IMG/VR virus record: IMGVR_UViG_3300033067_000691
Coordinates: 1-52,517 of that record
Source of the DNA: a virus
Taxonomy: Duplodnaviria; Caudoviricetes
Length of the DNA stretch: 52,517 nucleotides
Reading direction: 5' to 3' (one strand)
Part shown: positions 615 to 48,527 of the stretch, in pieces
Layout: each line of letters starts with the position of its first letter
Position numbering within the stretch: the first letter of the stretch is position 1
Program-made: the position numbers and the translations under genes
Notes under the pieces: model-generated
Databases searched by the model: none
Seen by the model: the letters and a program-made list of their open reading frames with translations, nothing else
Told to the model about the DNA's origin: nothing

Positions 615-631
615 AGTGTTTCCTCCGTGGA

Positions 632-952
632 TTAGAGCTTCAGCGTGTAGACACCAACAATTCCTGCCTGGCGCGCGTGGGTGATAAGCATCTGGGCAAT
701 GTCCATCGCCTGCTCAGGAGTGAAGCCAATCCATGCGGTAGGGGCCGCGAACTGCATCACCACCTTGCCGTTCTCGTGTCCGACCATCAGAGCAAGCGCG
801 CCCTCGTCGGATTGATTCAGCCTGCCGTCTGGAAATTCGCCTTGCAGCCTGCGCTGCGCGTCTTTCAGGGGATCGCCCGTTGCCTCGGCCTGTGCCAACA
901 ACTTCCGCAAGAGCGGGTTGTCGTCTCTCGGATCCGTTCCGTGGTGGCTCAT
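632..952 (-). CDS. hypothetical phage protein
   Basis: ORF in the early operon; AAGGA RBS before MSHHG. Confidence 0.65.
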   Translation of the reverse strand: MSHHGTDPRDDNPLLRKLLAQAEATGDPLKDAQRRLQGEFPDGRLNQSDEGALALMVGHENGKVVMQFAAPTAWIGFTPEQAMDIAQMLITHARQAGIVGVYTLKL

Positions 953-956
953 GTCC

Positions 957-1124
957 TTAATTCCCTTTCTTGAGTTCGTCATAGCGGCGCTTGAAAACCC
1001 GGCTCAGGCGCTCGCGCTGGCTGATGCAGCCGACGTGCTGGATGGTCTGTGCCGCCGCGATCAGTTCTGACCGACTCTTGGCGGCCGTCAGCAAGGTGGT
1101 AACCGCGGCGAAGGTGGCAACCAT
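957..1124 (-). CDS. small hypothetical protein
   Basis: ATG overlaps the ATPase stop (TGATG). Confidence 0.5.
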   Translation of the reverse strand: MVATFAAVTTLLTAAKSRSELIAAAQTIQHVGCISQRERLSRVFKRRYDELKKGN

Positions 1125-2884: not shown

Positions 2885-2892
2885 GGTCGCAT

Positions 2893-4125: not shown

Positions 4126-4139
4126 GGCGGTGATTCCTT

Positions 4140-4670
4140 TCAGGCGTTGGTGAATTGGCTCCAGTACGGATGCTTTCGCATCCGCGCATGAAGTTGGAGG
4201 TGGTACTTGATAGTGCAGACCAGTAGGTTTTCTGGACGGTTGTCCGTTCGATCGCAATTGATGTGATGAACAACCTCGCCGCGGCGCAGCTTTCTTCCAA
4301 TGGAGCGCTCGGCAACAATGGTGTGTTCGTATTGCCTGGATTTGCGCCCGGTGGCAACTTGGATATATCCATGGCTTGATTTCGTCTTGTTACCAATAGC
4401 GCGCTGCGTCAGGATGTCGTATCCGGCCGGCGCTCCAAGTGGGCGTATTGGTTTTGCTGGATGGTGAGACCTGCGCGCATCGGTCCATGGGCGCCCCCGG
4501 TGCGCGTCGCCCCTTGCTTGAATCTTTACCCCAGATCGCTTCAGTAAGCGATACGCCGTCGCTACCGGAATACCGGTCGCCACTGAGGTCTTTTCGATGG
4601 ACTTGCTTTCGCTGTACGAGGCTGCGCAGCGCTTCACGTCTTCCGTCGTCCATTTGAACTTTCCACTCAT
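4140..4670 (-). CDS. HNH homing endonuclease with N-terminal HTH
   Basis: YEHTIVAERSIGRKL...VVHHINCDRTDNRPENL; lower GC than neighbours. Confidence 0.85.
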   Translation of the reverse strand: MSGKFKWTTEDVKRCAASYSESKSIEKTSVATGIPVATAYRLLKRSGVKIQARGDAHRGRPWTDARRSHHPAKPIRPLGAPAGYDILTQRAIGNKTKSSHGYIQVATGRKSRQYEHTIVAERSIGRKLRRGEVVHHINCDRTDNRPENLLVCTIKYHLQLHARMRKHPYWSQFTNA

Positions 4671-4671
4671 A

Positions 4672-5493
4672 TCAACCCCTGAACGCACAGGAATTCCAGC
4701 GCACGCAATACTTCTCGCTGCAGAGCGTGGTGCTGGGATTGGGAGGAAACAGGCCGGTCTTGAACATCACGGCCGCGTACTCGATTAGGCCTTTCTGTTC
4801 GTCGGTGCCGACCATCATTCGCTTGGCATTGCTGATGGTGCCCTCGGCGATTTCGGGTTTCCCCGACGTCTTGAGGCCGATGATTCCGCCGGGTTCGGTG
4901 ATGACGTCGCCGGTGGTGTGCTCGTACAGGAGTTCATAGGTGCCGACCTGAGCCGCGAAGCCCTTGGTTTTGGCGACGCCTTTCTCGACGGCCCGGCCGC
5001 CACTCTTGACGTCCTTGATGCCGACGCCGCCGCTCTCGGCGTAGATGCGGGCGCGATCGAGCGTGCCGGTCAGGCGCACGATGATGCCGTTGCCGCAGTC
5101 GATGTCGAGCGGAGCGGTTTCCATTTCGACGGCCCGGAAGGTGAACCGCGGGCTCCAGTCGGTGCAGTAGCGCGAGTGCAGGATCAGGCCGACCTTCTCG
5201 GCCTCGTCGACGGTCATGTCTTCGTCGCGGTGCGCGATATCGTCTTCCGGGTGGCGCAGCTTGTCGACGAGCAGGCCCGCGGTATCGTCCGGCGTGAAGC
5301 CGGCGCCGTCGATGCGGCCCTGGTCAAAGGCCGCGGTGCTGGCGTGGATCGCCGTGCCAAGAACCGCGGCGATGCCAACGGGACCACGCATGCCGAGCAG
5401 GTTGCTGGCTTCCCAGCGCATTGCGCAGTCGAAGAGACTGCCCCAGCTTGAGGCGCGGACGCGGTAGGCGACCGGGGTTTCAGGTGCGTTCAT
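4672..5493 (-). CDS. PD-(D/E)XK (RecB/Cas4-like) exonuclease, RecT partner
   Basis: GTAIHA, LTGTLD, IKDVKSG, QVGTY and C-terminal LCSEKYCVRWNSC. Confidence 0.85.
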   Translation of the reverse strand: MNAPETPVAYRVRASSWGSLFDCAMRWEASNLLGMRGPVGIAAVLGTAIHASTAAFDQGRIDGAGFTPDDTAGLLVDKLRHPEDDIAHRDEDMTVDEAEKVGLILHSRYCTDWSPRFTFRAVEMETAPLDIDCGNGIIVRLTGTLDRARIYAESGGVGIKDVKSGGRAVEKGVAKTKGFAAQVGTYELLYEHTTGDVITEPGGIIGLKTSGKPEIAEGTISNAKRMMVGTDEQKGLIEYAAVMFKTGLFPPNPSTTLCSEKYCVRWNSCAFRG

Positions 5494-33833: not shown

Positions 33834-34198
33834 CCCTGATCGTGAGCGCCATCGCCGACTATCTCGGGTGCGTCCCGGTCGGCTGGGAGCTTCGCGCGAT
33901 CCGCGTCGACGGGATCTACTACGGCGACGTGATGCTCCAGGGCAATGAGATCCACGTCGCGGTGGCGCCGGAGCATCGTCGCCGCGGCTGGTCGCGGCGC
34001 ATCGCTCGCCAGTTCTTCACCGAGCTGCTGGCGGAAAAGCACTTTCTGACGACGCGCTCCGCTCCCGGCGACGGCACGGAGCCATTCATTCAGCGCCTGG
34101 GCTTCGTGCAAACCAACGAAGACGTCTTCTACCGCTACTGGTGGCTCGACCACCTTCCATTCGAGAGGAAATCCCGCCATGCACAGCAAGATTCTTGA
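33830..34198 (+). CDS. GNAT-like acetyltransferase (start uncertain: CTG 33830 or GTG 33842)
   Basis: EIHVAVAPEHRRRGW...FIQRLGF. Confidence 0.65.
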   Translation: MTLIVSAIADYLGCVPVGWELRAIRVDGIYYGDVMLQGNEIHVAVAPEHRRRGWSRRIARQFFTELLAEKHFLTTRSAPGDGTEPFIQRLGFVQTNEDVFYRYWWLDHLPFERKSRHAQQDS

Positions 34199-35216
34199 GG
34201 AACTGCGGCCGCGTCCGCTGTACTACACGACGCACCGCCGGCAGGTGGCCATGGGAGAGCCCGTGGGCGATGCCATGCGCGGGCCAGCTTTCGGCGAGCG
34301 TCGCGGACCGGCCATCGCGGTATTCGGTGCCTTCGCCAGTGTCAGCGCAGGCCTCGCCGCTGGCGGCCTGATGGGCGGGCTGATGATCGCCGGCGGCGTG
34401 ATGTCTGGGCTCGGCGCTATCACAGGCAACAAGACGCTTTCTTCGCTGGGCATGCTGGCCGGCTTGGCGGGCGGCGTCGGGCAGTTCTTCCAGCAGGGCG
34501 GCTTCGATTCCTTCAGCCAGGCGTATCAGGCCGATGGCGTCAATGGCGTGGTCGATCAATTCACGGGAAGCGCAAATTACGGCGCGTCGCCGGGGACTGA
34601 CGCTGTAATCAATCCGGTCGGTGATGCATCGGTAGCGCAGAGCATCGTTCCGCAGGTTGATACGCAGAGCATCATGGCCGGAAGCGGTAACGGTTTGCTT
34701 GGTTCTGGCGTTCCAGCGCCCAACGTGAGTCAGCTTGGGGTGGAGTTCCCGGCGGGATCGGTGGCGCCGGGTGTTGAGGTCGGAACGAATCTCAACGGTG
34801 GATTGCTGAACAGTCCGGTCGGGGCGAATCTCGGCACCAACGCGGCAACGTCGAGCGGTGGCGTAGTGGATGGCCTCAAGGGGCTGTGGAATGGCTCCGG
34901 CGACTTCACCAAGATGGCGCTGATCAATGCCGGGTCGGGGGCGCTGAAGGGCATGGCAGAGTCGGAAACCAACGACAAGCTGCTGGCACTCAAGGAAAGC
35001 CAGACCGAGGCAGGCAACAAGCTGACTGAGGCACAGACCGCGGCGATCGAGAAGAAGAATGCCGGCGTTCCGGTGACCAGTGTGGGCAGCTTCGGAGCAA
35101 ACCGGAGCGCCGCCTTCGGCACCAACGCCAATGGCCAGACGCGCAGCTACGCCGAGTACATCGCCGACCGCACGGCGGCGATGCAGCGGCTTTTTGGTCA
35201 ATCCGCACCCGCATAA
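34179..35216 (+). CDS. ejection protein with Gly-rich hydrophobic segments
   Basis: AGGLMGGLMIAGGVMSGLG; follows the GNAT gene. Confidence 0.65.
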   Translation: MHSKILEELRPRPLYYTTHRRQVAMGEPVGDAMRGPAFGERRGPAIAVFGAFASVSAGLAAGGLMGGLMIAGGVMSGLGAITGNKTLSSLGMLAGLAGGVGQFFQQGGFDSFSQAYQADGVNGVVDQFTGSANYGASPGTDAVINPVGDASVAQSIVPQVDTQSIMAGSGNGLLGSGVPAPNVSQLGVEFPAGSVAPGVEVGTNLNGGLLNSPVGANLGTNAATSSGGVVDGLKGLWNGSGDFTKMALINAGSGALKGMAESETNDKLLALKESQTEAGNKLTEAQTAAIEKKNAGVPVTSVGSFGANRSAAFGTNANGQTRSYAEYIADRTAAMQRLFGQSAPA

Positions 35217-35225
35217 GGAATCCAC

Positions 35226-35810
35226 ATGGACAAGATGAATCCGGCTACCGGCCCGGAGGGGCAAGCTCAACCTTTCGATTCGACCGAGATCCGCCAGGGC
35301 CTGCGCGAGAACGTGCCGCCGCCCATGCGCGAGGCCTACGACAAGGTGGTGACCGCCGGCATGAAGATCATGTTCGACAAGAGCACCCACCACCTGCTGC
35401 TGGAGCAGATGCAGGCCGAAGGCGAGGTATCCGACAAGCTCGCCGAGGGCGTCGCCGCCCTGATGGCGATGATGCTGAAGAACACCAAGGGCGCCTTTCC
35501 GCAACAACTGATCATCCCGGCCGGGATCGAACTGATGCTTCACGCCGCCGACTTCATCGCTCAGGGTGGCGGCGAGACTGTGACGGCCGAGGACATGGGG
35601 GCGGCCGTGCAAAAGTTCGTGTTCAAGCTGTTCGAGGGCACCGGTGTAAAGCCGGATGCGCTGATGGCTAGCGTCGGGCACATCCAGAAATTGCAGGATC
35701 AGGGTCAGGACGGGGCGCCAGCGGCCAATCCCGAGCCCGGCCAGGCGAGCACACCGGCGGCACCGGCGCAAGGCGCTGGCGGCCTTCTTTCGCAACCGAT
35801 GGGGGCGTAA
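35226..35810 (+). CDS. hypothetical virion-module protein
   Basis: AAGGA RBS; AYDKVVTAGMKIMF. Confidence 0.7.
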   Translation: MDKMNPATGPEGQAQPFDSTEIRQGLRENVPPPMREAYDKVVTAGMKIMFDKSTHHLLLEQMQAEGEVSDKLAEGVAALMAMMLKNTKGAFPQQLIIPAGIELMLHAADFIAQGGGETVTAEDMGAAVQKFVFKLFEGTGVKPDALMASVGHIQKLQDQGQDGAPAANPEPGQASTPAAPAQGAGGLLSQPMGA

Positions 35811-35813
35811 ATC

Positions 35814-36809
35814 ATGGGCCTGTTGATGGGAGCACTTGCCGGAGCGGCCGGCGCAGTCGAAGACACCACGAAATATGCGCTGCGCTCGATGATGGATGAG
35901 GAAAAGGCCAATCGCATCGCCGAGTACAGCAGCCGCCTCAAGTCCAACGAGGATCTGACGACCAGGGGCCGCAACAAGGCCGATGCAGCGGAGGAACGCG
36001 GGCGGGTTCAGACCGAAGCGCAAGCCGCTGCCGACAAGCGCGGAGGCCTGCTGTCTCAGAGTGCGACCGACGCCTACAACGCGCTGGCCAGCACGGACCC
36101 GGAAGGCGCGCAAGCCGGACTCGATGCCGTGAATCAGGCGAAGGCCGAGGGCAGATACAAGCAGGAACCGACGACCAAGGACATGCTGCTGGCCCAGGGC
36201 GACATCAAGACCATCGCGGCCATGGATGAAAAGCATTTCGCAAGCGAGATAAGGACGGCCATCGCCAATGGCAGGTTCGAGAATGCTTTGCAGATCGCTC
36301 AAATCAAGGGCGACTTCGCTATGACGCTGGGAGAACTCAAGGCGGCCTCAAAGAACGGTAGCGAGAAGGCCACCGAGCTGATGCGCAACATAACGGCGCT
36401 CAAGGGTATGGGCAAGTCAGACAAGGAGGCCATCGACCTCCTGCTGGGCGGGAAGGTCGGTGAGTACACCACCATCCATACGGAAAGCATCGACGACAAG
36501 ACTGGAGCCAAGACAACGACTACACGGAAGGTTAAGCCGCAACCCGAGTCCACAGCACCTCAGCGCTCGATGATGGACCTGTTCCCGCCAAAGCAGAATC
36601 AGCAGGCGCCGGCACAGGCGGCCAGCGCCACGGCAAGCGCCGCCCCGCGAATGACGACCGAGGATGTGCAGCCGGTTGTAGTGAAACTGGAGCCGGCGGG
36701 GCAGTCCATGTTTGGCAGAAAACAGTTCGTCGCCACGTACCAGGACGGCACGCGAAAGGTGGTCTCTGGCGACGATGCCGAGCGCCAAGCCATCCTCATG
36801 AGCAAGTAA
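35814..36809 (+). CDS. ejection protein candidate
   Basis: MGLLMGALAG start; helical; precedes the giant protein. Confidence 0.65.
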   Translation: MGLLMGALAGAAGAVEDTTKYALRSMMDEEKANRIAEYSSRLKSNEDLTTRGRNKADAAEERGRVQTEAQAAADKRGGLLSQSATDAYNALASTDPEGAQAGLDAVNQAKAEGRYKQEPTTKDMLLAQGDIKTIAAMDEKHFASEIRTAIANGRFENALQIAQIKGDFAMTLGELKAASKNGSEKATELMRNITALKGMGKSDKEAIDLLLGGKVGEYTTIHTESIDDKTGAKTTTTRKVKPQPESTAPQRSMMDLFPPKQNQQAPAQAASATASAAPRMTTEDVQPVVVKLEPAGQSMFGRKQFVATYQDGTRKVVSGDDAERQAILMSK

Positions 36810-36812
36810 GCA

Positions 36813-39800
36813 ATGGCCGACATTTCCATCATCAATGCCGCGATCGAGCGCGGCTACAGCCACGACGAGATTGCCGACATACTGGCCGCCGATGCCGGAT
36901 TCGATCCGAAGGCGATTCGCGGCAACGGATATTCAAGCGCCGAGATTCTTGGCCGGCTTGGGTATGAGTTGCCGAAGGTTTCCGAGTCCGGCGACTTCAT
37001 GCGCGGCGCGACGACGGCGGCCAAGCAGTTGCCGCAACTTGGCTATGGCCTGATCGGTGCTGCCGGGGCCGTCGCCGAATCCGCGCTTGGTGAGGGTGGC
37101 GTTTCCTCTGCCGTCAAGGAATTCGGCGTCAGGAAGTACCAAGAGGCTGGCGCCGACATCCAAAAGGACGCCAAGGAAACCGACTCGCTCACCTATTCAT
37201 GGGAGCGCGCCAAGCAAGGCGACTACGGCGCGATGGTGGATTGGCTCCAGTACGGCCTCGGCTATGGCGGCGTTCAGGCGCTGGAAGCCCTGGCATCCGG
37301 CGGCATCGGTGCCGTACTCGGGAAAGCCACGCTGAAGGGAACCGCCGAGCACCTGGCTGCCGGCATGGTGGCAAAGGAAGCCGCGCGCATCGGCGCAGCG
37401 CAGGAGGGCAAGGCACTTGCGGCCGATGTTGTGCAGCGGATGGCGGTTGCCAACGTAGCGGCGAACATCGGCGCAAAGGTCGGCATCGGTGCTCAAGCCT
37501 TCGGCATGGAGGGCGGCGAAATCATGGGCGGGCTGGCCGAACAGTCGGCAAAGCGCGGGAGTCCGCTGACTGGCGACGAGATCGCCAAGGGGCTAGGCGC
37601 AACGCTTGCCGCCGGCAGCCTGGAATTCGTCGGCGACAAGATCGGTGTCGACCTGATGTTGGGCAAGTCAGGCATGTTCAAGCCGGCGGCCGGAATGACT
37701 GGGATCGGCGGTCGCGTTGCACGCGCAGGAGTGGCCGCGGCTGGAGCGATCCCCATCGAAAGCGGGACCGAGTATTTCCAGACTGGCCTGGAAGAGTGGG
37801 GGCAGGGAAAGGAAGCCAACATCGCGCCGTGGAATCAGTCGCCAGAAGCGCAGCGTCAGGCCTTCGATGCCGCCGGCCTTGGTGCAGTTGGCGGCGGGGC
37901 GATGGCGGTCGGCGGCGGGCTGCTGACGCCGCCAAGCGCTCGACCTGCAATCCCTCGTGCCACCCCGGAAGATGTTGCCTCCGCCGAAACCCCGCAAGCC
38001 GCCGCCGCCGCCGTTGCTGATATGGGCGCTGGGATCGCTCCGCCGATTGCCGAATCGCTTGCTTCAACGCAATCGGAAATTGATGCATTGCTGGCCGACC
38101 CATTGACAGAATCCGCCGCCCTGGTGCAGCCATCGTCGATTATTCCCCCATCGGTTGGTGGAAACCCTGCGCTGGGTGCGGCGGATACCGTACCCAGCGG
38201 ACCGCAACAGCTACCTGGGCATGTGCTTGGTTCGCAGCCCGTGCTGCCTGAGAACTCTGGCAACAACACGAGTGGCGGAGTGAACCTGCTTGGCGATCTG
38301 GCGAACGGTAAGCCCGGCATCGAAAAAGGGGCGGATGTCGTTGATGGTGGCGCGCTGCGGGAAATGATGGCCCGTATGTTCAGCATTAGTCATGATCGCC
38401 AGATTCTCGATGCGGTTGTCAAGCTTATCCCCGTTGATGTGGTGAACTATCTCGCTGGATTCAAGCTTACGCCCGAGATGCTGTTCCATAACCCATCGAT
38501 GCTTGAGGGTGGGCTTCCCGTCCCCGGTAGCAATGATCAAGTACCCGTTCCTTCCAATGTAACCCGTGCGCTGATGAATGCCACGGCAGGCGTAGCTACA
38601 GAACACCAAACCGCTGCCGGGAATCCTGGACGTCTTTCGGTAAACAACGCTGCCACAATTGGCGCAGGCAACATGAACGCCGTTGCGCTGCCCGGCGCTG
38701 TAGTGCTTCCGGAAGCAGGGCAGGCTGCAAAAGTTTCCGGTAGCAACGAGCCTGGACGGCTTGATGTAAACGGGGGTACCGCAGGCGGTACAATTGACGA
38801 CAGGCATAGCGTGACTCCCAATAGTGACGTTGTGCTAGGGGCCGGTGGCGTTGACGCGTCATCGGCTCCGTCCATTATGCCACAAGCAAAAGTCGGCGCC
38901 GGCAGCACGCCGATTGTCACCCAGCAAAGTGACAATGCCGTTCCGCCAGGCCTCGCCCAAATGCGGGCGCGAGTCGCCGAACGCCAAGCCAGCGCCGATG
39001 CGCCAGTAGTCAAGGAATCCTTGATGGTTCCGCCGACCGCCCAGCCAGCGTCTACTAATTCCCTGCCAATCGATAGCGAAATTAGTACACCGCCAGCCGG
39101 TCAGCCTGACGAACCCGCCGGCACGGTTCAGGGCGTGAATCGCATCCGTGGCGGCAAGCTCGAGATCACCGGATTCGGCCGCGATGAAGTCGCCGATGTG
39201 CTGAAGACGGCCAAGATCGTCGCGACGGTGACTGCCGGCAAGGATGGCCGCGTGCTGGTCTCGGCAACCGACCGTGCTGGAAATGCGACCAAGATCAGCA
39301 TCAAGCAGCAGAACGCCATCAGCAAGGCGCTGCTGGGTGCTTCGGCCACCCCGAAGAAGGCGCGCAAGCTCTCAGGCAACCTGAAGAACGACCTCGACAT
39401 CATCGCACCGGGCCTCTATGGCGAAGTCGCGCGCGGTGGCGATGGCGAGGCCAACGACGCGGCATGGGGCGACGTTTCACTCATCGCTGAAAAGATGCGC
39501 GACGAGCAGGGCTACATGCTGCCGCACGACGCCAACGGGCAGGATCTCGCCAACGCCCTGCGCGAACTGATCCGCCAGCACGCCGGTGGCGATGTCGTGC
39601 TCAACGAGGCCCGCCAAGCGGCCGCAATGACCGAGGAAGAAACCAAGCGCCATCGCTCCGATGTGCTGCGCATGGCCGATGAGTACGGCATCGAGACGAA
39701 GCGCGGAATCATCCCGCGCCGACTCGAAGAGATCGAGGCCGAAGTAAAGGCAGCCATCGAGCAGGAGATTGGGGTCGCTGGCAAGGGTATGGCAGCAGCC

Positions 39801-42800
39801 TACGAAGCCGCGATCGAGGCAGGAATTCAAGACCAAGCCGATGCCATCCTCGACCGAATCGCCGATTTCTACCAAGGCGAAACGTCTGCCGACAGGGATG
39901 TTTTGCTGTATCGTGAACAGACAAACGCATTGCAGGAGGCCATCGATGCCCATCAAGAACGCGAAGGACGCGACACACAAGGCGAAGGTGCTGGCGACAA
40001 TCAACCGCAGGCAACGCGAGGCGAAGGCCGCCCAGTCCTCGAGCTCGCCGGCCAATCCGCCGAAGAAATCCGCGCCGACGAAGAGCGCGTAAAGTCCGCT
40101 GAGGCGCAACGCCTCAAGGAAGAACAGGCCGCCGAGAACAAGCGGCAGGCCGACGCCGAACGCGGCGCATTCAATCTGACCGGGAGCGACCGCCCCGCCG
40201 ATGTTCTGGCGGCGCAGGGGCAGCAGGACATTTTCAGCGCCCCCGTCGATGCGGCGGCACACGAAGCCTCCACCAGCCCGCACAACGACAAGCCGGAGCC
40301 GACGCCGGCGCAGATCGAGGCAGGTAACTACTCGAAAGGCCATGCAACCGTGGCCGGGCTCGACATCAGCATCGAGAACCCCGAAGGCTCGACGCGCTCG
40401 GGCACCGACGCCAACGGCAAGGCGTGGTCGGTCACCATGAAAAGCCATTACGGCTACATCAGGGGAACAGTCAGCAACGACAAGGATCACGTCGACGTCT
40501 TCATCAAACCCGGCACGCCGACCGACTATTCTGGTCCGATCTTCGTCATTGACCAGGTGAAAGCCAACGGCCGCTACGACGAATTCAAGGTGATGATCGG
40601 ATGGAAGTCCGAAGCCGAGGCTCGCGCCGGCTACCTCGCCAACTATGAGAAGGGATGGCGGGGCCTGGGAGCGATCACCAAGGTTTCCGTTGCCGACTTC
40701 AAGACGTGGTTGACCGAGGGCGACACCACGAAGGCGTTTGCCGGTGGAATGAAAGTCGGCGCTGGCGCGACGGCGAAAAAGCCAAGGAAGCCAAAAGCCG
40801 CCGACCCGATGATCGCAATCCGCGAGTTCTACACCCCCGGCAACATCATCCACGTCGACTACTGGAACCAGCAGGACAAGGTGCTGGCCTTCGAGGAAAA
40901 GGAGCCCGGCAACTGGTCCGTGACGGTGCAGCAAGTCAAGAAGCAGGGCGACGAGTGGGTGCCGGCCGGTGAAGTGCGAGAGCATCGGACGACGCCGGGC
41001 AAGGATCGGATCATTGATCGCGTTACCGATCCGGCCGCCTCCGATCCGGACAAGGTGGCGGCCGAGAAAGCCGATGCCGATTTCGATGAAGCCATGGGGG
41101 AACTGGGCGACATCATCGGCAAGAACTTCCGCGCGACATTCACGCCGGAGCAGGAACAAAAGTTGATCCCGGTCCTGACCAAGCTGTTCGATGCCGCCTT
41201 CCGCAAGGGCTACTACAAGTTCAAGGAAGCCGCGCGGTTCGTGCTCGGTGCCATTCAATCGAAGTTCGGCGCCGACGTTGCCGACCAGATCACGATTGAC
41301 CATTTGCAGGGCGCCTATATCGGCATGGCAGGACGCTACAAGGATCAGGGCGCCGACAAGCCGGCTGTGGTTGCGGCCGTAGAGAGCAAGGACGAAATAT
41401 CGGCATGGTCTACAATGGAAACAGGAGGTATCGACAATGGGCCTGAGCAGCGTAGCGGCGCCGATCTGGAACGAGATAGCGAAGACGCAGACCCTGAAGA
41501 CGGAATGGGCGAGGAAAGCATTCGCCCTGGACGATCAGGCGATGTCGGATCTCGAGAATCGGGAGTATCAGGAACTGAAGCCCAAGGTCGGGCAGGCAGT
41601 GGCAGCAGCATTTTCGGACCTGAAGCCCCTGCTGCTGGAGAACCAGGCGATCAGTCGATATATACAGGCGCAGGGCGACCCGTCATTGAGGCAGGCGCTG
41701 CCGGAAGTGGTGTCGATAGCGGAAGCGATAGCGATAGCCTCGATGGATCGCCCATTGAGCCCACTTCAACAGACCTCTTTGCAGAACTTGCTGAAAGCCG
41801 AGTATCGCTAGACGAGGCCAAGGCCAAGCAACAGGCGGCTGACCGGCTGGAGCACAAGCCGGGCATCGCAAATATCCGTGAGACGCTGCCGATCCTCACC
41901 GAAGGCCAGCAGCAGGACGTCCACATTGCAGAAACCCGGTTTGCCAAGCCCGACGGCTACGGCATGCTGTTCACCAACGGCACCGGTACCGGCAAGACAT
42001 TCACCGGCCTTGGCATCATCAAGCGCATGGCGGTTTCTGGCAAGCGCAACGTCATCATCGCCGTGCCGAACGACAAGATTGCCGACGACTGGCGCAAGTC
42101 TGGGAAGCTGCTCGGACTCGACATTTCCCTGCTGGAGAACACCAAGGACGCCGGTCGCGGGATCGTCATCACCACCTACGCCAACTTCGGACAGAACCCG
42201 GAACTAGCGCGTCGCGAGTGGGATCTGGTTGTCGCCGATGAGGCGCACAAGCTCGCCATGAATGCGAGCGGCGAGGCAACGCTGGCGCTCGATGCGCTCC
42301 AGGCGCTGACGCTGCACCCTGATGGCGCCTACACCCGGGCAAGGATGCTGCATGCCGACCTGTACGCGCGCCTCGATGAGCTTGAAGCGCTGGCCAAGTC
42401 GCAGCGCATGTCTGACGACGAGCGCAACTGGCACGCCGAGAGCGGAACTCAGACCAAGATTGATTCGCTGCGCCGCGAGATCGATGCCAAGGTGGAGGCC
42501 ATCAAGGAGGACATCGCGGCTCGCCAGGGCGAAGCCAGGCCGCGCGCCCTGTTCCTGTCGGCGACGCCGTTTGCCTATGAGAAGACTGTCGATTGGGCGA
42601 ATGGCTACCTATTCGACTACAACGAGGGACGCGGCGACGAGCGCAACGAATTCCGGGGCTACAACGAGGGCAGCAATCGCGACCAGTTCTTCATGCAGCA
42701 CTTCGGCTACCGGATGCGTTACGGCAAGCTGACCGAGCCGGACTCCAAGGTCGACCGTGGCCTGATGCAGCGCCAGTTCAATGGCTGGCTGAAGAAGCGC

Positions 42801-45800
42801 GGCGCCGTGGCGGGCCGAATGCTGGACGTCAAGGCGGACTATGATCGCCGTTTCATCCTGGTCGAATCAGCCATCGGAGCGCGCATCGATCAGGCGCTGG
42901 AGTGGTTCGAGACGCAACGCAAGGCGCAGAACAGGGGCACCGGGGAAGCCGGAGAGCGTATTGCCGCCATCATGGCCAAGGCCGACCCGCGCGCCGTGGC
43001 GCTGGGCAAACTGCGTGACAAGATCGCGGAGAAATTCGATTACCTGTCGCGGCGCTACCTGCTCGAAGCCATCAAGGCGCAGGAGGTCGTGCCGCACGTT
43101 CGCGAGCATCTGGCGCTGGGCCGCAAGGTTGTCGTCTTTCACGACTACAAGAAGGGCGGCGGATTCAACCCGTTCCGGATCTCCCCGATTTCCGGCACCG
43201 CCGAATCCAAGGAAGCGCAGGCGGAAAACGACGCCTACAACCGCGTGGTCGAGGAATTCACCACGGAATTCTCCGACCTGATCGAATCGGACCTGTGGCG
43301 TGCGTCTTCACCGATCACGACATTCCAGCAGGAATTCCCGGGCGTGCTGCTGTTCAATGGCAACGTGCCGAAAGCGCAGCGTCGCGCCGCCGTCGAGAAG
43401 TTCCAGGACGACGCCAGCGGACCGCAAGTGATCCTCGTACAGTCGGATGCCGGAAAGGAAGGCATCAGCCTGCATGACACGACCGGCGTGCATCAGCGCG
43501 TGCTATTCAACCTTGGCCAGCCCACGGCGCCGACGACGGCCATTCAGCAGGAGGGCCGCATCTACCGCACCGGCCAGGTCACGGATGCCATCTTCCGCTA
43601 CCTGAACACCGGCACCGACTGGGAGAAGTGGGCCTTTGCGACGACCATCGCCCAGCGCGCCAGCGCGGCCGAGAATCTGGGCATGGGTGAGCAGGCTCGG
43701 GCGCTGAAGGATGCGTTCATTGCCGGCTTCGAGGAATCCGACGACTACCGCGCCGGCATGGACGGCGAGGGCAAGGGCGGCAAGGAGCGCGACCGCGCGG
43801 CGAACGAGGCAATTACAGAATACGACCGCGCCCGCGCCTTCTATTTCGGCACCCAGAAGAAGACCGCCAAGACCAAGGCGCAGGAAGGTGTCGACTACTT
43901 CGCGACGCCTGAGCCGGTCGGCTTCAAGATGATGGAGTGGGCCGACATCCGGCCGGGAGAGGCCGTGCTGGAACCCAGCGCCGGCCACGGCGCCATCGCG
44001 CGCTGGATGCCGGATACGGCCGTGCGAACCGCCATCGAACCGAGCATGACGCTGCGCTCACGCCTGGCCATGGTCTTCGACGGCACGATGCTCGATCACG
44101 ATTTCGAGGATCTGAACATCGTCAACAAGTACGACGCCATCGTGATGAACCCGCCTTTCGGATCCGGAGGCAAGACGGCGATCGACCATCTGGCCAAGGC
44201 GGCGACGCACCTGCGCGATGGCGGGCGCATTGTCGCCTTGATCCCGCGCGGACCTGCGGCTGACAAGCGCTTCGACAAGTGGTTCTATGAGGAAAGTGAG
44301 AAGGCCAGCAAGCCGATCGTTCCAGCTTCAGCGCTTAATGTTGGAGAGGAAATTCATCGAGGGGACACGGTAAGGATATTCGGGTTCGGGCGGAACAGTG
44401 ACATGGTTGTTGATCGCGCCGACAAGATCAACGGGGTCTATTACATTCGGCCAGAAGGAGCGGACAAAGCCAGCAGCATCAACGTGACTGCCGTTGAAGC
44501 TGTTATCCCCGGCAAGCGCACCGAGTCCTACAAGCCGGCGGAAGGCCTGAATCTGGTTGCCGACGTGGTGATGCCGAACGTGACCTTCGAGCGCGCTGGT
44601 ACGCAGGTTGCTACGCGCATCGTGGTGATCGAAAAGTCGCCCGACGCGCCGCAACTTTTCAGCCCAAGCTTTGTGGATGTTGAGGACATCAACGAGCTAT
44701 TCGATCGCATGGAAGGAACAACGGTCGAGGGCCGCGCGAAGCCTGAAGTTGTGGAGGTCGAGGCCGCGCCGTCGAAGACCGGGAAAGCCGCCAAGCCTGT
44801 CGTTGATCAGGAAGCTGCAAAGGCGGCGGCCGAGACCATGGGCCTGAATATCATCGAGCACATCACGCAGAAGGGCAAGACGCTGCGCGGCGTGGTTCGC
44901 ACCGATCTGACGCGCGACCAGGCGAAGGAGATCGACGAATTCACGTTCAAGAAGGACGGCGGCTGGTTCATTCGCGAAAAGCATCTTGTCGCGAAGCCTG
45001 GCGAAAGCGGCGGCGCACTCGAATCCCGCTCCGATTCCATGACGCGAGAGCAGGCTGAAATGATCATCGCTGCCTCACGCGGCGGGATCCACACCGGCGA
45101 GACGGTCGGATCGATTCGCTCAGGACTTCATCAGTCGATCGGAAAGGCCGTGATCGACCGGCTGGAACAGAAGGGCTTGCTGCGCATCCTCAAGACCGCC
45201 GACGATCTGCCGTATGGCCTGACGCTTTCCGAGACAGGTACCGCCCTGTATGACGGCAATGTGGCCTACCTGATCGCCGACCGGATGCGACCTGAGACGG
45301 CCGTCCGCGAGATCCTGCACGAGATTGGCGAACACCACGGGCTTGAGGGGATGCTGGGGAAGGATGGCTATGCCGCGCTAACGAGGCGCGTTCGCGCCAT
45401 GGAGAAGTTCGGCAATCAGCGCGTGCGCGACGCCTTCGCCACGGTTCGCCAGCTCTATCCGGAATACGCAGACAACTCTGCCGAGTTCATGCATGAAGTG
45501 CTGGCCAACATCGGCCAGGATGCCGACATTCAGGCAAAGCCATGGTGGCAGGAAATGCTCGCCGCGGTCAAGCGCTGGATCGTGCAGATCGGCTACGGCG
45601 GTCTGATCAAGGCCGGCGATATTCAGGACATGGTGCTGCATAGCCTGAAGGTGGCGGCTGGAGAGGATCACTTTGCCGGCGCCGGCAATATGATCCCGGC
45701 GATGGCATCGAAGTCCGGATCTCCCGCGATGGAAGCACGCCAGACGCGCCAGCAGGCGCTACCGAACACAGGCACGCCGCCGGCACCAGCGCCGGTCCGT

Positions 45801-48527
45801 CAGACCCCGATGGGTTTGCAGGGCGGCGCCACGGGCAACAACGCCTCATGGAACGGTTATCAGGCGTCCAAGCTGGATGACGTGATCCGGACCCTTCAGG
45901 ACAAGCACATCGACAGCAAGCGCACGGTGCAGGCAATCAAGGCTGCCGGGCGCCAAGTCGCCGACAAGTGGGACGTCTACCTGCAGGAATCGCTGTTCCA
46001 TGGCCGCGCGGCAAAGCGGACGCTGGAGTTCGTTGAAACCGAGCTGACGCCGCTGGCGCAGGATTTGGCCATGCGCGGTCTCACACTTGATGAGCTCGAC
46101 CAGTACCTGCACGCGCGCCATGCGGAAGAAGCAAATGCCCTGATCGCCCAGCGCAATCCAGCGATTCCCGATGGCGGCTCCGGCATGACCAACCAGCAGG
46201 CGCACGACTACTTCACCAGCCTGGACCCGTCGAAGCGCAAGCGGCTGGAAGCCTCGGCCGCCCGGGTGGATGCCATCATTGCCAACACGCGCAAGCTCTA
46301 CGTCAGCTATGGGCTGGAATCGCAGGAAACCATCGACGGCTGGGCCGACACCTTCCAGCATTACGTGCCGCTGATGCGCGAGGACAAGGACGGCGGCATG
46401 GGCATCGGTCAAGGCTTTTCGGTCAAGGGCAAAGAGTCCAAGAGCCGCACCGGTTCGACCCGCGCCGTGGTGGATATTCTGGCCAACATCGCCATGCAGC
46501 GCGAACGCGCCGTCGTGCGCGGCGAGAAGAACCGGGTTTCCGTGTCCCTGCTGGGCCTGGCCAAGCTGAACCCGAACCCCGGCTTCTGGATGACGGACCG
46601 CATTCCGATGATCACCGGCCTGAACCCGGCAACCGGACTGGTTGAGACCTATCCGGATCCCGGCTACAAGAGCCGTGAGAATGTCGTCGTGGCCAAGGTT
46701 CCCGACGGCAAGGGTGGTATTCAGGAGCGCGCTGTCGTCTTCAACGAGGAAAACGAACAGGCCATGAACATGGCGCGCGCGCTGAAGAATCTGGACGCCG
46801 CACAGCTTGAGGGCTTGATGGGTGCGGCGTCGCGCGTGACGCGCTACTTTGCGTCGATCAATACCCAGTACAACCCGGTCTTCGGCGTGACCAACCTGGT
46901 GCGAGACGTGCAGGACGCCATGCTGAACCTGTCGTCGACGCCGATCGCCGGCCACAAGGCCGACGTGCTGAAGCACACGCTCGGGGCCCTGCGCGGGATC
47001 TACATCGATACCCGTCAAATGCGCAAGGGCCAGCCGGCGACGTCGGCCTACGCTCAACTGTGGGAGGAATTCCAGCATGAGGGCGGGCAGACTGGTTACC
47101 GCGACATGTTCCGCACCAGCGCCGACCGTGCGCGCGCCATCGAGAGGGCCATCAACCCGACGCAATGGATGGACAGCCCCCTGGGTCAGGTCTTCACTGC
47201 CGGCGGCGCGCTGCGGGTTCCCGTTGCCGTCGCGCAGCAAAAGGCGACCTGGCTATTCGACTGGTTGAGCGACTACAACGAGTCGATGGAGAACGCCGTG
47301 CGCCTGGCCGCCTACAAGGTGGGGCTGGAGCAGGGCATGAGTAAGCAGCAGGCGGCGGCGATGGCCAAGAGCTTGACGGTGAATTTCAACCGCAAGGGGC
47401 AGATCGGCATGCAGGCCGGCGCGCTCTACGCCTTCTTCAATGCTTCCATGCAGGGCACCGGCCGCATCGCGCAGACGCTGTTCACCATCCAGGGCAACGA
47501 CATCAAGACCGTCAGGCTGTCCAAGTCCGGACAGAAGATCGTCGCCGGCGGCATCCTGCTGGGAAGCCTCCAGGCGCTGATGCTGATGGCCGCCGGCTTC
47601 GGTGATGATGAGCCCCCGGAGTTCGTGCGCGAGCGCAATACCATCATCCCGATCGGCAACAAGAAGTACGTCACGATCCCCATGCCGCTCGGCTTTGCCG
47701 TCCTGCCCAACATCGGCCGCATCGCTACCGAGTTCGTCATGGGTGGATTCAAGAACCCAGCGAAGCACGTCACGCGCCTGCTTGGCATCGCCGCGGATGC
47801 CTTCAACCCGATTGGCGGCAACGGAACAGTGTTGCAGATGGTCACGCCGACCGCCTTGGATCCGCTGGCCGCGATTGCCGAGAACAAGGACTGGACCAAG
47901 AAGCCGATTGCCAAGGTGGCCTATGACAAGACCACGCCGGGGCACAAGCTCTGGAAGGATACGGCCAGCACGCCGGGAAAGCTGATCGCCGAGGCGATCA
48001 ACGCGATGTCAGGCGGCAACAAGTACGTTGCCGGCAGCCTGAGCCCGACGCCAGACCAGATTGATTACCTGTTTGGCCAGGTGACTGGCGGTGTTGGTCG
48101 CGAGCTGTCGAAGACCGAACAATCGATCATGGCCACGGTGCGCGGCGAGGATTTGCCTCCGCACAAGATTCCCTTGGTCGGCCGGTTCTATGGCGACGCC
48201 AATGCGCAAAGCAGCCAGGGTACGACCTTCTACAACAACATCAACCGCATCAAGGAGTACGAAAACACAATCAAAGGTCTTCGGGAAGACAAGAAGGGCG
48301 AGGAAGCCGCCAAGTTCATCGCCAAGAATCCCGAGGCGCGGCTGGTGATGCGTGCGAACTACACCGAACGCGTGGTGCAAAAGCTTCGCAAGGAAAAGCA
48401 TGATCTGGTCGAGAAGGATGCGCCGCGCGAGCGCATCAAGATGCTGGAAGACCGGATCAAGACGGAAATGCAGCGCTTCAACGATGCCGTGAAGGCGTCA
48501 AAGAAGCGAGAGAAGGAAGCGGCCTGA
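36813..48527 (+). CDS. giant polyvalent DarB-like injected protein: InPase-like, SF2 helicase, N6-adenine methyltransferase, zincin-like and LPD38-like domains
   Basis: PTPAQIEAGNYSKGH (~40300); NGTGTGKT and DEAH (~41980-42250); EPSAGHG and NPPF (~43970-44160); HEIGEHHG (~45320); NFNRKG...FFNASMQG (~47380-47460). Confidence 0.85.
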   Translation: MADISIINAAIERGYSHDEIADILAADAGFDPKAIRGNGYSSAEILGRLGYELPKVSESGDFMRGATTAAKQLPQLGYGLIGAAGAVAESALGEGGVSSAVKEFGVRKYQEAGADIQKDAKETDSLTYSWERAKQGDYGAMVDWLQYGLGYGGVQALEALASGGIGAVLGKATLKGTAEHLAAGMVAKEAARIGAAQEGKALAADVVQRMAVANVAANIGAKVGIGAQAFGMEGGEIMGGLAEQSAKRGSPLTGDEIAKGLGATLAAGSLEFVGDKIGVDLMLGKSGMFKPAAGMTGIGGRVARAGVAAAGAIPIESGTEYFQTGLEEWGQGKEANIAPWNQSPEAQRQAFDAAGLGAVGGGAMAVGGGLLTPPSARPAIPRATPEDVASAETPQAAAAAVADMGAGIAPPIAESLASTQSEIDALLADPLTESAALVQPSSIIPPSVGGNPALGAADTVPSGPQQLPGHVLGSQPVLPENSGNNTSGGVNLLGDLANGKPGIEKGADVVDGGALREMMARMFSISHDRQILDAVVKLIPVDVVNYLAGFKLTPEMLFHNPSMLEGGLPVPGSNDQVPVPSNVTRALMNATAGVATEHQTAAGNPGRLSVNNAATIGAGNMNAVALPGAVVLPEAGQAAKVSGSNEPGRLDVNGGTAGGTIDDRHSVTPNSDVVLGAGGVDASSAPSIMPQAKVGAGSTPIVTQQSDNAVPPGLAQMRARVAERQASADAPVVKESLMVPPTAQPASTNSLPIDSEISTPPAGQPDEPAGTVQGVNRIRGGKLEITGFGRDEVADVLKTAKIVATVTAGKDGRVLVSATDRAGNATKISIKQQNAISKALLGASATPKKARKLSGNLKNDLDIIAPGLYGEVARGGDGEANDAAWGDVSLIAEKMRDEQGYMLPHDANGQDLANALRELIRQHAGGDVVLNEARQAAAMTEEETKRHRSDVLRMADEYGIETKRGIIPRRLEEIEAEVKAAIEQEIGVAGKGMAAAYEAAIEAGIQDQADAILDRIADFYQGETSADRDVLLYREQTNALQEAIDAHQEREGRDTQGEGAGDNQPQATRGEGRPVLELAGQSAEEIRADEERVKSAEAQRLKEEQAAENKRQADAERGAFNLTGSDRPADVLAAQGQQDIFSAPVDAAAHEASTSPHNDKPEPTPAQIEAGNYSKGHATVAGLDISIENPEGSTRSGTDANGKAWSVTMKSHYGYIRGTVSNDKDHVDVFIKPGTPTDYSGPIFVIDQVKANGRYDEFKVMIGWKSEAEARAGYLANYEKGWRGLGAITKVSVADFKTWLTEGDTTKAFAGGMKVGAGATAKKPRKPKAADPMIAIREFYTPGNIIHVDYWNQQDKVLAFEEKEPGNWSVTVQQVKKQGDEWVPAGEVREHRTTPGKDRIIDRVTDPAASDPDKVAAEKADADFDEAMGELGDIIGKNFRATFTPEQEQKLIPVLTKLFDAAFRKGYYKFKEAARFVLGAIQSKFGADVADQITIDHLQGAYIGMAGRYKDQGADKPAVVAAVESKDEISAWSTMETGGIDNGPEQRSGADLERDSEDADPEDGMGEESIRPGRSGDVGSRESGVSGTEAQGRAGSGSSIFGPEAPAAGEPGDQSIYTGAGRPVIEAGAAGSGVDSGSDSDSLDGSPIEPTSTDLFAELAESRVSLDEAKAKQQAADRLEHKPGIANIRETLPILTEGQQQDVHIAETRFAKPDGYGMLFTNGTGTGKTFTGLGIIKRMAVSGKRNVIIAVPNDKIADDWRKSGKLLGLDISLLENTKDAGRGIVITTYANFGQNPELARREWDLVVADEAHKLAMNASGEATLALDALQALTLHPDGAYTRARMLHADLYARLDELEALAKSQRMSDDERNWHAESGTQTKIDSLRREIDAKVEAIKEDIAARQGEARPRALFLSATPFAYEKTVDWANGYLFDYNEGRGDERNEFRGYNEGSNRDQFFMQHFGYRMRYGKLTEPDSKVDRGLMQRQFNGWLKKRGAVAGRMLDVKADYDRRFILVESAIGARIDQALEWFETQRKAQNRGTGEAGERIAAIMAKADPRAVALGKLRDKIAEKFDYLSRRYLLEAIKAQEVVPHVREHLALGRKVVVFHDYKKGGGFNPFRISPISGTAESKEAQAENDAYNRVVEEFTTEFSDLIESDLWRASSPITTFQQEFPGVLLFNGNVPKAQRRAAVEKFQDDASGPQVILVQSDAGKEGISLHDTTGVHQRVLFNLGQPTAPTTAIQQEGRIYRTGQVTDAIFRYLNTGTDWEKWAFATTIAQRASAAENLGMGEQARALKDAFIAGFEESDDYRAGMDGEGKGGKERDRAANEAITEYDRARAFYFGTQKKTAKTKAQEGVDYFATPEPVGFKMMEWADIRPGEAVLEPSAGHGAIARWMPDTAVRTAIEPSMTLRSRLAMVFDGTMLDHDFEDLNIVNKYDAIVMNPPFGSGGKTAIDHLAKAATHLRDGGRIVALIPRGPAADKRFDKWFYEESEKASKPIVPASALNVGEEIHRGDTVRIFGFGRNSDMVVDRADKINGVYYIRPEGADKASSINVTAVEAVIPGKRTESYKPAEGLNLVADVVMPNVTFERAGTQVATRIVVIEKSPDAPQLFSPSFVDVEDINELFDRMEGTTVEGRAKPEVVEVEAAPSKTGKAAKPVVDQEAAKAAAETMGLNIIEHITQKGKTLRGVVRTDLTRDQAKEIDEFTFKKDGGWFIREKHLVAKPGESGGALESRSDSMTREQAEMIIAASRGGIHTGETVGSIRSGLHQSIGKAVIDRLEQKGLLRILKTADDLPYGLTLSETGTALYDGNVAYLIADRMRPETAVREILHEIGEHHGLEGMLGKDGYAALTRRVRAMEKFGNQRVRDAFATVRQLYPEYADNSAEFMHEVLANIGQDADIQAKPWWQEMLAAVKRWIVQIGYGGLIKAGDIQDMVLHSLKVAAGEDHFAGAGNMIPAMASKSGSPAMEARQTRQQALPNTGTPPAPAPVRQTPMGLQGGATGNNASWNGYQASKLDDVIRTLQDKHIDSKRTVQAIKAAGRQVADKWDVYLQESLFHGRAAKRTLEFVETELTPLAQDLAMRGLTLDELDQYLHARHAEEANALIAQRNPAIPDGGSGMTNQQAHDYFTSLDPSKRKRLEASAARVDAIIANTRKLYVSYGLESQETIDGWADTFQHYVPLMREDKDGGMGIGQGFSVKGKESKSRTGSTRAVVDILANIAMQRERAVVRGEKNRVSVSLLGLAKLNPNPGFWMTDRIPMITGLNPATGLVETYPDPGYKSRENVVVAKVPDGKGGIQERAVVFNEENEQAMNMARALKNLDAAQLEGLMGAASRVTRYFASINTQYNPVFGVTNLVRDVQDAMLNLSSTPIAGHKADVLKHTLGALRGIYIDTRQMRKGQPATSAYAQLWEEFQHEGGQTGYRDMFRTSADRARAIERAINPTQWMDSPLGQVFTAGGALRVPVAVAQQKATWLFDWLSDYNESMENAVRLAAYKVGLEQGMSKQQAAAMAKSLTVNFNRKGQIGMQAGALYAFFNASMQGTGRIAQTLFTIQGNDIKTVRLSKSGQKIVAGGILLGSLQALMLMAAGFGDDEPPEFVRERNTIIPIGNKKYVTIPMPLGFAVLPNIGRIATEFVMGGFKNPAKHVTRLLGIAADAFNPIGGNGTVLQMVTPTALDPLAAIAENKDWTKKPIAKVAYDKTTPGHKLWKDTASTPGKLIAEAINAMSGGNKYVAGSLSPTPDQIDYLFGQVTGGVGRELSKTEQSIMATVRGEDLPPHKIPLVGRFYGDANAQSSQGTTFYNNINRIKEYENTIKGLREDKKGEEAAKFIAKNPEARLVMRANYTERVVQKLRKEKHDLVEKDAPRERIKMLEDRIKTEMQRFNDAVKASKKREKEAA
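38211..38807 (-). CDS. HNH endonuclease with two zinc fingers and C-terminal HTH, nested antisense in the giant ORF
   Basis: CTAC...FCSLPC, CANC...FCSYAC, HRWVMEQHLGRKL...VHHINGDKLDNRIENL; GGGAG RBS. Confidence 0.85.
   Translation of the reverse strand: MPVVNCTACGTPVYIKPSRLVATGNFCSLPCFRKHYSAGQRNGVHVACANCGSVVYRKTSRIPGSGLVFCSYACRGIHQRTGYIGRNGYLIIATGDGKPTLKHRWVMEQHLGRKLESSEIVHHINGDKLDNRIENLAIMTNAEHTGHHFPQRATINDIRPFFDAGLTVRQIAKQVHSATRVVARVLRQHGLRTKHMPR
38838..38882 (-). promoter_or_regulatory. extended -10 promoter and leader hairpin for the nested HNH
   Basis: Minus strand TGgCATAAT (-10 at 38874-38879); hairpin 38838-38869. Confidence 0.5.
39946..40092 (+). CDS. possible nested out-of-frame 48-aa basic peptide
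   Basis: AGGAGG 6 nt before the ATG, within a linker of the giant ORF. Confidence 0.35.
   Translation: MPIKNAKDATHKAKVLATINRRQREAKAAQSSSSPANPPKKSAPTKSA
41437..41811 (+). CDS. nested out-of-frame 124-aa helical protein
   Basis: TACAAT (41411-16) and AGGAGGT (41423-29); giant frame here is a disordered G/S/D/E linker. Confidence 0.7.
   Translation: MGLSSVAAPIWNEIAKTQTLKTEWARKAFALDDQAMSDLENREYQELKPKVGQAVAAAFSDLKPLLLENQAISRYIQAQGDPSLRQALPEVVSIAEAIAIASMDRPLSPLQQTSLQNLLKAEYR

Follow-up and report, generated by a model that had tools for sequence, protein, structure and literature searches.

An HNH endonuclease gene embedded antisense and in codon register within a phage polyvalent-protein gene, probably a mobile cassette read through as a linker

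Introduction

In a phage DNA polymerase gene, a self-splicing group I intron encodes the homing endonuclease I-HmuI in the sense direction. Free-standing homing endonuclease genes (HEGs) of phages are either intergenic or divide a gene into two halves that are both expressed. An HEG in antisense orientation is reported from a group I intron of nuclear ribosomal DNA (rDNA) (PMC9548176). More recently (2025), hidden out-of-frame HNH elements were described in the DNA methylase genes of actinophages, namely the ShiLan domain and the insert in Pacc40 gp60, and in the relevant passages of that description the authors found no splicing signals (PMC11855218). The present analysis concerns the IMG/VR virus record IMGVR_UViG_3300033067_000691, taken as a whole (52.5 kb; estimated completeness 92%) and called the window below. 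It contains an intact gene for an HNH_3 endonuclease that lies on the minus strand, inside a giant plus-strand open reading frame (ORF) that stays open across it in the same codon register. Probably this gene belongs to a mobile cassette that is read through as a linker by the host gene; the nuclease would be made from the opposite strand and presumably homes.

Anatomy and identity of the embedded HNH gene

The HNH gene extends over 38211..38807 on the minus strand, from an ATG start to a stop at 38211-38213, and encodes 198 amino acids (aa). Its product consists of two zinc ribbons, an HNH core, and C-terminal helices that resemble a helix-turn-helix. The surrounding gene (36813..48527, plus strand, 3904 aa) encodes a phage-type polyvalent protein with InPase, ResIII/Strawberry-notch helicase, and LPD38 domains. 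The two reading frames are aligned codon to codon in antisense, as the distance from 36813 to 38211 is 1398 nucleotides (nt), or 3 x 466. Over the HNH gene the giant frame is free of stops, and the other two plus-strand frames carry 11 and 13 stops there.

The Pfam family HNH_3 (PF13392) matches residues 101-144 of the HNH ORF with an expectation value (E) of 3.8e-16 and a score of 58.9 bits against a cut-off of 24.8. With tblastn, the HNH protein matches 133 phage records over up to 85% of its length, and several of these records annotate the matching region as an HNH or homing endonuclease. The conserved motifs are a C..C...C..C pattern and the string HH.NGD..DNR..NL..H; residues H122, H123, N131, N135, H144, H148, C48, C51, C70, and C74 are invariant in all 11 embedded copies examined (the window and 10 other viral contigs), and these include the zinc-binding Cys residues and the presumed catalytic ones. 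An AlphaFold (AF2) model from an alignment of 11 sequences has a predicted local distance difference test score (pLDDT) of 87.2, with 95 residues at or above 90. No fold in the PDB matches this model at E <= 0.001; the closest is I-HmuI (1u3e), with a probability of 0.98 but a weak E of 0.038 and a TMq of 0.29.

A Shine-Dalgarno-like GGGAG, as read from the sequence, lies 7 nt before the ATG (38815..38819, minus strand), and a GGAG-type string stands at the equivalent place in four of six aligned copies (the window, L007, L012, and L013). The string TGG+CATAAT, 66 nt upstream of the ATG (38874..38882, minus strand), resembles an extended -10 element and is a candidate promoter by string match. 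The original prediction, made from the letters of the window, had described a 198-aa zinc-finger, HNH, and helix-turn-helix ORF nested antisense and codon to codon opposite an unbroken giant frame, and the Pfam match, the conserved motifs, the C-terminal helices of the model, and the coordinates all agree with that description. It had also given the gene its own ribosome-binding site and extended -10; the former is matched by the Shine-Dalgarno-like GGGAG, whereas the latter exists as a string that the promoter scan does not call.

Codon use and selection on the two strands

Among its 198 codons the HNH gene has no TTA, CTA, or TCA, the codons that would place stops in the giant frame, and this agrees with the avoidance that had been predicted. 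It also has no ACA, GCA, or CCA, whose complements encode cysteine (Cys) or tryptophan (Trp) in the host frame. Together the six avoided codons make up 3.96% of codons pooled from the phage's other genes, and the probability of meeting none of them in 198 codons is 3.4e-4. As a control within the same genome, the other HNH gene of the phage (4140-4688) uses 13 of the six avoided codons in 183.

The same avoidance is complete in the 11 antisense-embedded HNH genes, in which TTA and CTA account for 0 of 134 leucine codons, TCA for 0 of 143 serine codons, ACA for 0 of 93 threonine codons, GCA for 0 of 100 alanine codons, and CCA for 0 of 53 proline codons. In 29 GC-matched HNH genes that are not embedded in antisense, a comparison group that includes at least seven loci inside a long same-strand ORF and so is not purely free-standing, the corresponding fractions are 11% (TTA plus CTA), 16% (TCA), 27% (ACA), 22% (GCA), and 28% (CCA). 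Fisher p values for TCA, ACA, GCA, and CCA range from 2.6e-6 down to 1.5e-9. The embedded genes are also depleted of GTA and GTG, which give tyrosine or histidine in the sense frame, and enriched in some codons that give aspartate or glycine, namely GTC and ACC (p < 0.001). The synonymous-codon bias of the HNH gene therefore leaves the sense frame without stop, Cys, or Trp.

Substitutions follow the nuclease. In each of the 55 pairs formed by the 11 copies, the HNH proteins are more alike than the sense-strand translations (mean identities 0.38 and 0.26), and nucleotide differences per site at HNH codon positions 1, 2, and 3 are 0.52, 0.42, and 0.61, so that the third position varies most and the second least. 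The giant gene has a GC content of 0.65/0.46/0.76 at its three codon positions; within the insert the values are 0.70/0.46/0.55 in the host frame and 0.55/0.46/0.70 in the HNH frame, and third-position GC thus drops from 0.76 to 0.55 in the plus frame where the HNH frame has 0.70. The comparison of selection on each strand that the original prediction had proposed as a check accordingly comes out in favor of the HNH frame. From third-position GC, fold, families, and substitution pattern, the amino-acid sequence under selection is that of the nuclease. Compositional selection against stop, Cys, and Trp codons still acts on the sense frame, and this avoidance is best explained by the filler really being translated as part of a Cys-free giant protein.

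Seven of the 11 host ORFs have no Cys, and overall the host ORFs are Cys-free or nearly so. In 149 filler-bearing proteins, Cys occurs at 0.42 per 1000 aa within the filler and 0.30 in the rest. The giant protein of the window has no Cys in its 3904 residues, and the phage's genes elsewhere have 0-15 each. Of 209 proteins longer than 2000 aa gathered during the analysis, 121 lack Cys altogether (median 0), a pattern suggestive of a constraint shared by polyvalent proteins as a family. The main text of the polyvalent-protein paper (PMC5512222) has no mention of cysteine, and none of homing, antisense, or intein.

The sense-strand filler

The plus-strand counterpart of the HNH gene and its 5' leader, here called the filler, covers 38211..38882 and forms residues 467-690 of the giant protein. 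Over residues 437-698 the sense frame matches no Pfam family at E <= 5, Hint and intein families included. An AF2 model of the filler from an alignment of 10 sequences has a pLDDT of 42.4 and not one residue at or above 70. The filler has no Cys and no Trp, and its composition is linker-like. A search of 36000-41000 against Rfam gave no group I or group II intron match at E <= 1. By Rfam, Pfam, and the fold model, the insert is neither an intron nor an intein as far as such signals can tell, none having been found.

These results agree with the predicted linker-like reading of the opposite strand and with the proposal that the HNH gene entered without an intron or intein. A conserved domain in the sense frame had been named in advance as a finding that would speak against that proposal; the sense frame has neither a Pfam family nor a confident fold.

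Recurrence in other viruses

A search of 5.8 billion proteins with residues 467-690 returned seven other giant proteins (2439-5251 aa) with LPD domains, in which the filler lies at positions that vary from 304 to 3231; it is also present in two further proteins, P0010 and P0015. Two blocks are conserved in the filler alignment. LIPVDVVN is the reverse reading of HHINGD, and in DRH VVTPxSD the H is the reversed HNH start codon and the rest is the 5' leader. In a full phmmer search with the filler as query, 185 of 1.84 billion cluster representatives match at E <= 1e-3 and 29 at E <= 1e-10. The filler-bearing cluster proteins are mostly 1000-5700 aa long and carry the filler at differing positions; among the 149 in which it was located, 118 have at least 1000 aa, and in 120 the filler is more than 150 aa from both ends.

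At the DNA level, a scan of viral contigs with the filler alignment yielded four loci from 100 pattern matches. All four hold an intact HNH gene (tblastn E of 4e-28 to 2e-47) that shares the codon register of the window's copy, is enclosed by a long open ORF, and has no stop-making codon. A scan with an HNH profile, which is independent of the sense frame, kept 80 of 472 confirmed loci; eight of the 80, including all five of the best, lie in antisense open frames of 1459-2181 aa. Two of these eight are contigs already found through the filler, and one locus has 41% GC. The antisense, codon-aligned layout in the same phase is thus present in 10 other viral contigs. The GC content of the embedded HNH genes falls to 45%, and the HNH frame is open in all 11 DNA copies. 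A scan of viral contigs with the single HNH sequence found two distant loci.

Two further arrangements were met during these searches. The 72 other loci kept by the profile scan are not all free-standing; in at least seven (L023, L029, L032, L036, L055, L078, and L079) the HNH match (at about 4001-4470 in each) lies inside a same-strand ORF of 554-1973 aa in the +1 or +2 frame, which is the ShiLan-type layout in uncultured viral contigs. The filler-bearing protein P0124 (5185 aa, from NCBI) also has a precomputed Pfam match to LAGLIDADG_3, and its polyvalent gene may, from this match, hold a second kind of homing-endonuclease or intein element.

Insertion boundaries and insert-free relatives

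Estimated at its widest, the inserted segment is 38120..38907 (residues 437-698, 788 nt); in the filler alignment, family-wide conservation is confined to a narrower block, about 38235-38882. A check for alleles that lack the insert had been proposed, and such alleles exist among related proteins. In P0004 (3817 aa), residues 380 to about 452 are joined directly to residues 677-737 in BLAST segments, and this protein is insert-free. Two other pairs of hosts show clean gaps of about 255 aa: a stretch of 262 aa in P0153 corresponds to 9 aa in P0005, and one of 263 aa in P0147 to 7 aa in P0053. In P0225 the cassette occupies a linker that lacks it in the protein of the window, and related hosts carry it at different sites. 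Presence or absence at the same site in homologous hosts is patchy, with flanks that are 45-76% identical at the protein level. No convincing direct or inverted terminal repeats bracket the element.

The flanks have different relatives. P0005 shares residues 1-461 and P0006 shares residues 58-483, after which both diverge, and P0003, P0004, and P0007 share residues from 741/759 onward. From these matches, the cassette is placed at a junction of modules with different relatives. A 15.8-kb wastewater contig from the X4 run, which belongs to another study, is 99% identical to the window from 38908 onward and unlike it upstream. A blastn search of 37200-39900 against 50,697 phage records gave no match. 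A scan with the N-terminal 466-aa flank found two distant viral loci, which share residues 52-359, and a scan with residues 699-975 found no relative in metagenome contigs or viral contigs.

A global alignment of P0002, P0003, and P0004 and a local MAFFT alignment were set aside, being confounded by a separate insert of about 110 aa in P0004. That insert (P0004 residues 637-747) is a different module at a neighboring linker, which is empty in the window (residues about 737-741). A repeated motif, GAGSTPIVTQQSDN in the window and GTGATPIVTPQSDN in P0004, is common to the linkers and could act as a recombination site. Farther downstream, contigs from two studies (three runs) match the giant gene on both sides of 39738-39911 but have 177 different letters in place of these 174 nt. 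The gene thus has a further small variable cassette there. The HNH core motif region (38397-38458) has 4-20x the surrounding depth in all four metagenome runs, and the contigs that cover it are numerous and continue into differing flanks. Many members of the family of the embedded HNH appear to coexist in the metagenome communities.

The host gene and its neighborhood

On the plus strand, terminase, portal, major head, and tail-fibre-like genes precede the giant ORF. Within the giant protein, Pfam matches include InPase (E 6e-54), LPD38 (E 3e-44), ResIII, and Helicase_C_4, and a methyltransferase (MTS) match falls below the cut-off. The helicase and the sub-threshold MTS match lie more than 1000 residues downstream of the insert, which is placed between the N-terminal module of the protein and its InPase domain. 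Polyvalent proteins are recognized by the numerous enzymatic domains and LPD domains that a single giant chain combines; the host gene has this makeup, including InPase and LPD38, two domains listed as phage-only in part of the published survey (PMC5512222). Its position after the head and tail genes and its polyvalent-protein domains suggest that the giant gene is essential or encodes a virion protein, presumably one that is injected.

The phage has a second HNH endonuclease gene (4140-4688, minus strand, 182 aa; PHROG HNH families) among early genes on the same strand. This gene is 43% identical to the embedded HNH over the core, and its codon use is ordinary. The single terminator-like hairpin found in the promoter and terminator scan is at chance level.

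Proposed mechanism and alternatives

With the anatomy, homology, selection on two strands, recurrence, and presence or absence among relatives as observed above, the proposed mechanism is as follows. An HNH homing-endonuclease cassette with its own ATG and ribosome-binding site, and possibly its own promoter, would occupy an inter-domain linker of a polyvalent-protein gene, reversed and aligned codon to codon with the host frame. In this register a stop in the host frame can arise only opposite an HNH codon TTA, CTA, or TCA. Each of the three has synonyms, so the nuclease can retain its amino-acid sequence without closing the host frame. The host ribosome would read about 220 extra codons as an unstructured linker free of Cys and Trp, and the giant protein would be one polypeptide made without RNA or protein splicing. 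The HNH would be made from the opposite strand and would cut or nick insert-free alleles in co-infecting relatives, and the cassette would be copied into the cut allele by recombinational repair. Cleavage and homing by the window's HNH are suggested by analogy with I-HmuI-like enzymes, and the gene is probably selfish.

Several points weigh against a mobile cassette read through as a linker. The open host frame of the window, taken alone, is weak evidence and hardly more than chance would give (P about 0.2), because this GC-rich phage seldom uses TTA, CTA, or TCA; what does go beyond chance is the homology of the ORF, the added avoidance of ACA, GCA, and CCA, and the recurrence in other contigs. 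The insert-free alleles are proteins of 45-76% identity, and no near-identical pair of genomes with and without the insert was found as DNA; one contig of the X2 run joins 38119 to 38908, a weak hint given that this contig is diverged and its shorter side spans 30 letters. Loci recovered with the filler translation are biased toward open sense frames, and the HNH-profile scan is the one unbiased search; the mixed comparison group used for codon use counts on the same side. Polyvalent-type domains (InPase, MuF_C, LPD1/3/5, or ART-PolyVal) occur in four of the 10 other host fragments; one other has a 2',5' RNA ligase domain, and in the remaining five no Pfam match passes the curated cut-off. The start signals are uneven, as an obvious Shine-Dalgarno sequence is absent from two of the six aligned copies, the upstream DNA of the six has no conserved -10, and the scan called no minus-strand promoter, TGG+CATAAT included. 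The HNH tree (52 rows kept over 108 columns; 31 dropped, four with stops and 27 shorter than 95 aa) is poorly resolved; embedding needs seven changes on it against a shuffled mean of 10.1, and it favors neither a single specialized lineage nor repeated capture. Read-through into one polypeptide and expression of the HNH would, moreover, be conclusions from DNA rather than from RNA or proteomics.

Alternatively, an ordinary free-standing HNH gene might have been inserted where GC-rich codon use happened to keep the host frame open, leaving a giant protein that is perhaps impaired or an insert that is inconsequential. The phage-wide use of TTA, CTA, and TCA (0.8%) gives the probability of about 0.2 already cited for none in 198 codons, and the minus strand of the window holds other long antisense shadow ORFs that match no Pfam family (39477-41303, 608 aa; 45846-47240, 464 aa; 34086-36302, 738 aa), so that ORF length alone is uninformative on such a GC-rich genome. 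Chance would leave unexplained the complete lack of ACA, GCA, and CCA, the shared phase and lack of stops in 10 other contigs with HNH GC as low as 45% (one locus 41%), and the mostly internal position in proteins of 1000-5700 aa. For five loci, the values of P0 for zero stop-making codons multiply to about 5e-6, even before the 1-in-3 phase is counted, and a chance shadow frame is thereby very improbable. Equally hard to credit is removal of the segment by an unrecognized intron, intein, or other bypass, with the filler absent from the mature protein. Introns and inteins are the classical homes of HEGs, and the antisense HEG of the nuclear rDNA intron is a precedent (PMC9548176). Against removal stand the Rfam search of 36000-41000, in which no intron matched, the sense frame with neither Hint nor any other Pfam family and no confident fold, and the related same-strand ShiLan elements, which have no splicing signals according to passages of their description (PMC11855218). 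Splicing is also unlikely because a spliced RNA would leave host-frame stop, Cys, and Trp codons unselected, yet they are avoided.

Somewhat less remote, though still improbable, is a domesticated or relic cassette that no longer homes. The HNH might then work for the phage, for instance in DNA processing or as a weapon against competitors, or the filler might have become a useful linker while the HNH decays. The position of the element at a junction of modules of different ancestry (P0005 and P0006 on one side; P0003, P0004, and P0007 on the other) and the linker-like composition of the filler would suit such a history. Decay is at odds with the open HNH frames and invariant presumed catalytic and zinc residues of all 11 DNA copies, and with substitutions that follow a coding HNH frame; the patchy distribution at different sites in related hosts is what an active selfish element would be expected to show.

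The mobile, read-through cassette may also be part of a larger process, although this is rather unlikely. The cassettes would be specialists of polyvalent genes, co-adapted on both strands, whose cuts in linkers drive the exchange of modules between co-infecting phages, and the filler would be a working linker. Module exchange is hinted at because the element sits exactly at the junction of modules with different nearest relatives, because the wastewater contig is 99% identical from the element edge at 38908 and unrelated upstream, and because related hosts carry the cassette in different linkers.

A mobile cassette read through as a linker would add a route by which a selfish nuclease gene may live inside an ORF, beside introns, inteins, gene splitting, and the same-strand alternate frame described in 2025. 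The element would be novel in being reversed and in codon register, with synonymous sites that yield a harmless linker in the host frame. Complete avoidance of Cys and Trp codons is a computational sign of simultaneous selection on both strands, and the cassettes provide a natural system in which to test dual coding. Because gene callers absorb the cassette into the giant ORF, the nuclease genes go unannotated in about 185 protein clusters; the filler itself may be taken for a protein domain. Should the cassettes also promote recombination in linkers, they would help to explain the mosaic structure of polyvalent anti-defence proteins and would be an engine of the domain shuffling typical of these giants.

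Comparison with known systems

The ShiLan-type elements are the closest described systems, and the window HNH is homologous to the ShiLan HNH (33% identity, E 1e-9). According to passages of their description (PMC11855218), ShiLan elements also consist of a zinc-finger HNH of about 195 aa inside a stop-free host ORF and lack signals of an intron or intein; disorder is predicted for their in-frame product, and the distribution among relatives is patchy. The ShiLan HNH, however, lies on the same strand as its mycobacteriophage host gene in another frame (in the ShiLan record it is on the plus strand at offset 2, inside gp65), whereas the window HNH is on the opposite strand and codon-aligned. 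The same passages give the ShiLan HNH a GTG start and no detectable ribosome-binding site; the window HNH has an ATG and a Shine-Dalgarno-like site. ShiLan hosts are DNA methylases or helicase-methylases, in contrast to the polyvalent protein of the window. In the main text of the ShiLan paper (PMC11855218) the words antisense, reverse, opposite, and complement do not occur, and its passages contain no description of Cys or Trp avoidance. No published description of an antisense, codon-aligned HNH gene in a coding frame was found in a search outside which subscription journals and supplements lay.

Like I-HmuI (1u3e), the window HNH has an HNH core followed by a C-terminal DNA-binding part resembling a helix-turn-helix; unlike I-HmuI, it has additional N-terminal zinc ribbons, and no intron was found around it. 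With the free-standing phage HEGs, such as seg and mob of phage T4 (as described in part of PMC2988022), it shares a small nuclease gene with its own start signals, a patchy distribution, and no splicing. The window's host gene differs from the neighbors or targets of free-standing HEGs in remaining one ORF that reads through the element. The antisense HEGs in nuclear group I introns (PMC9548176) likewise lie on the strand opposite the host gene. There the host is a ribozyme spliced from ribosomal RNA, whereas in the window the host is a protein-coding frame that is apparently translated across the nuclease gene.

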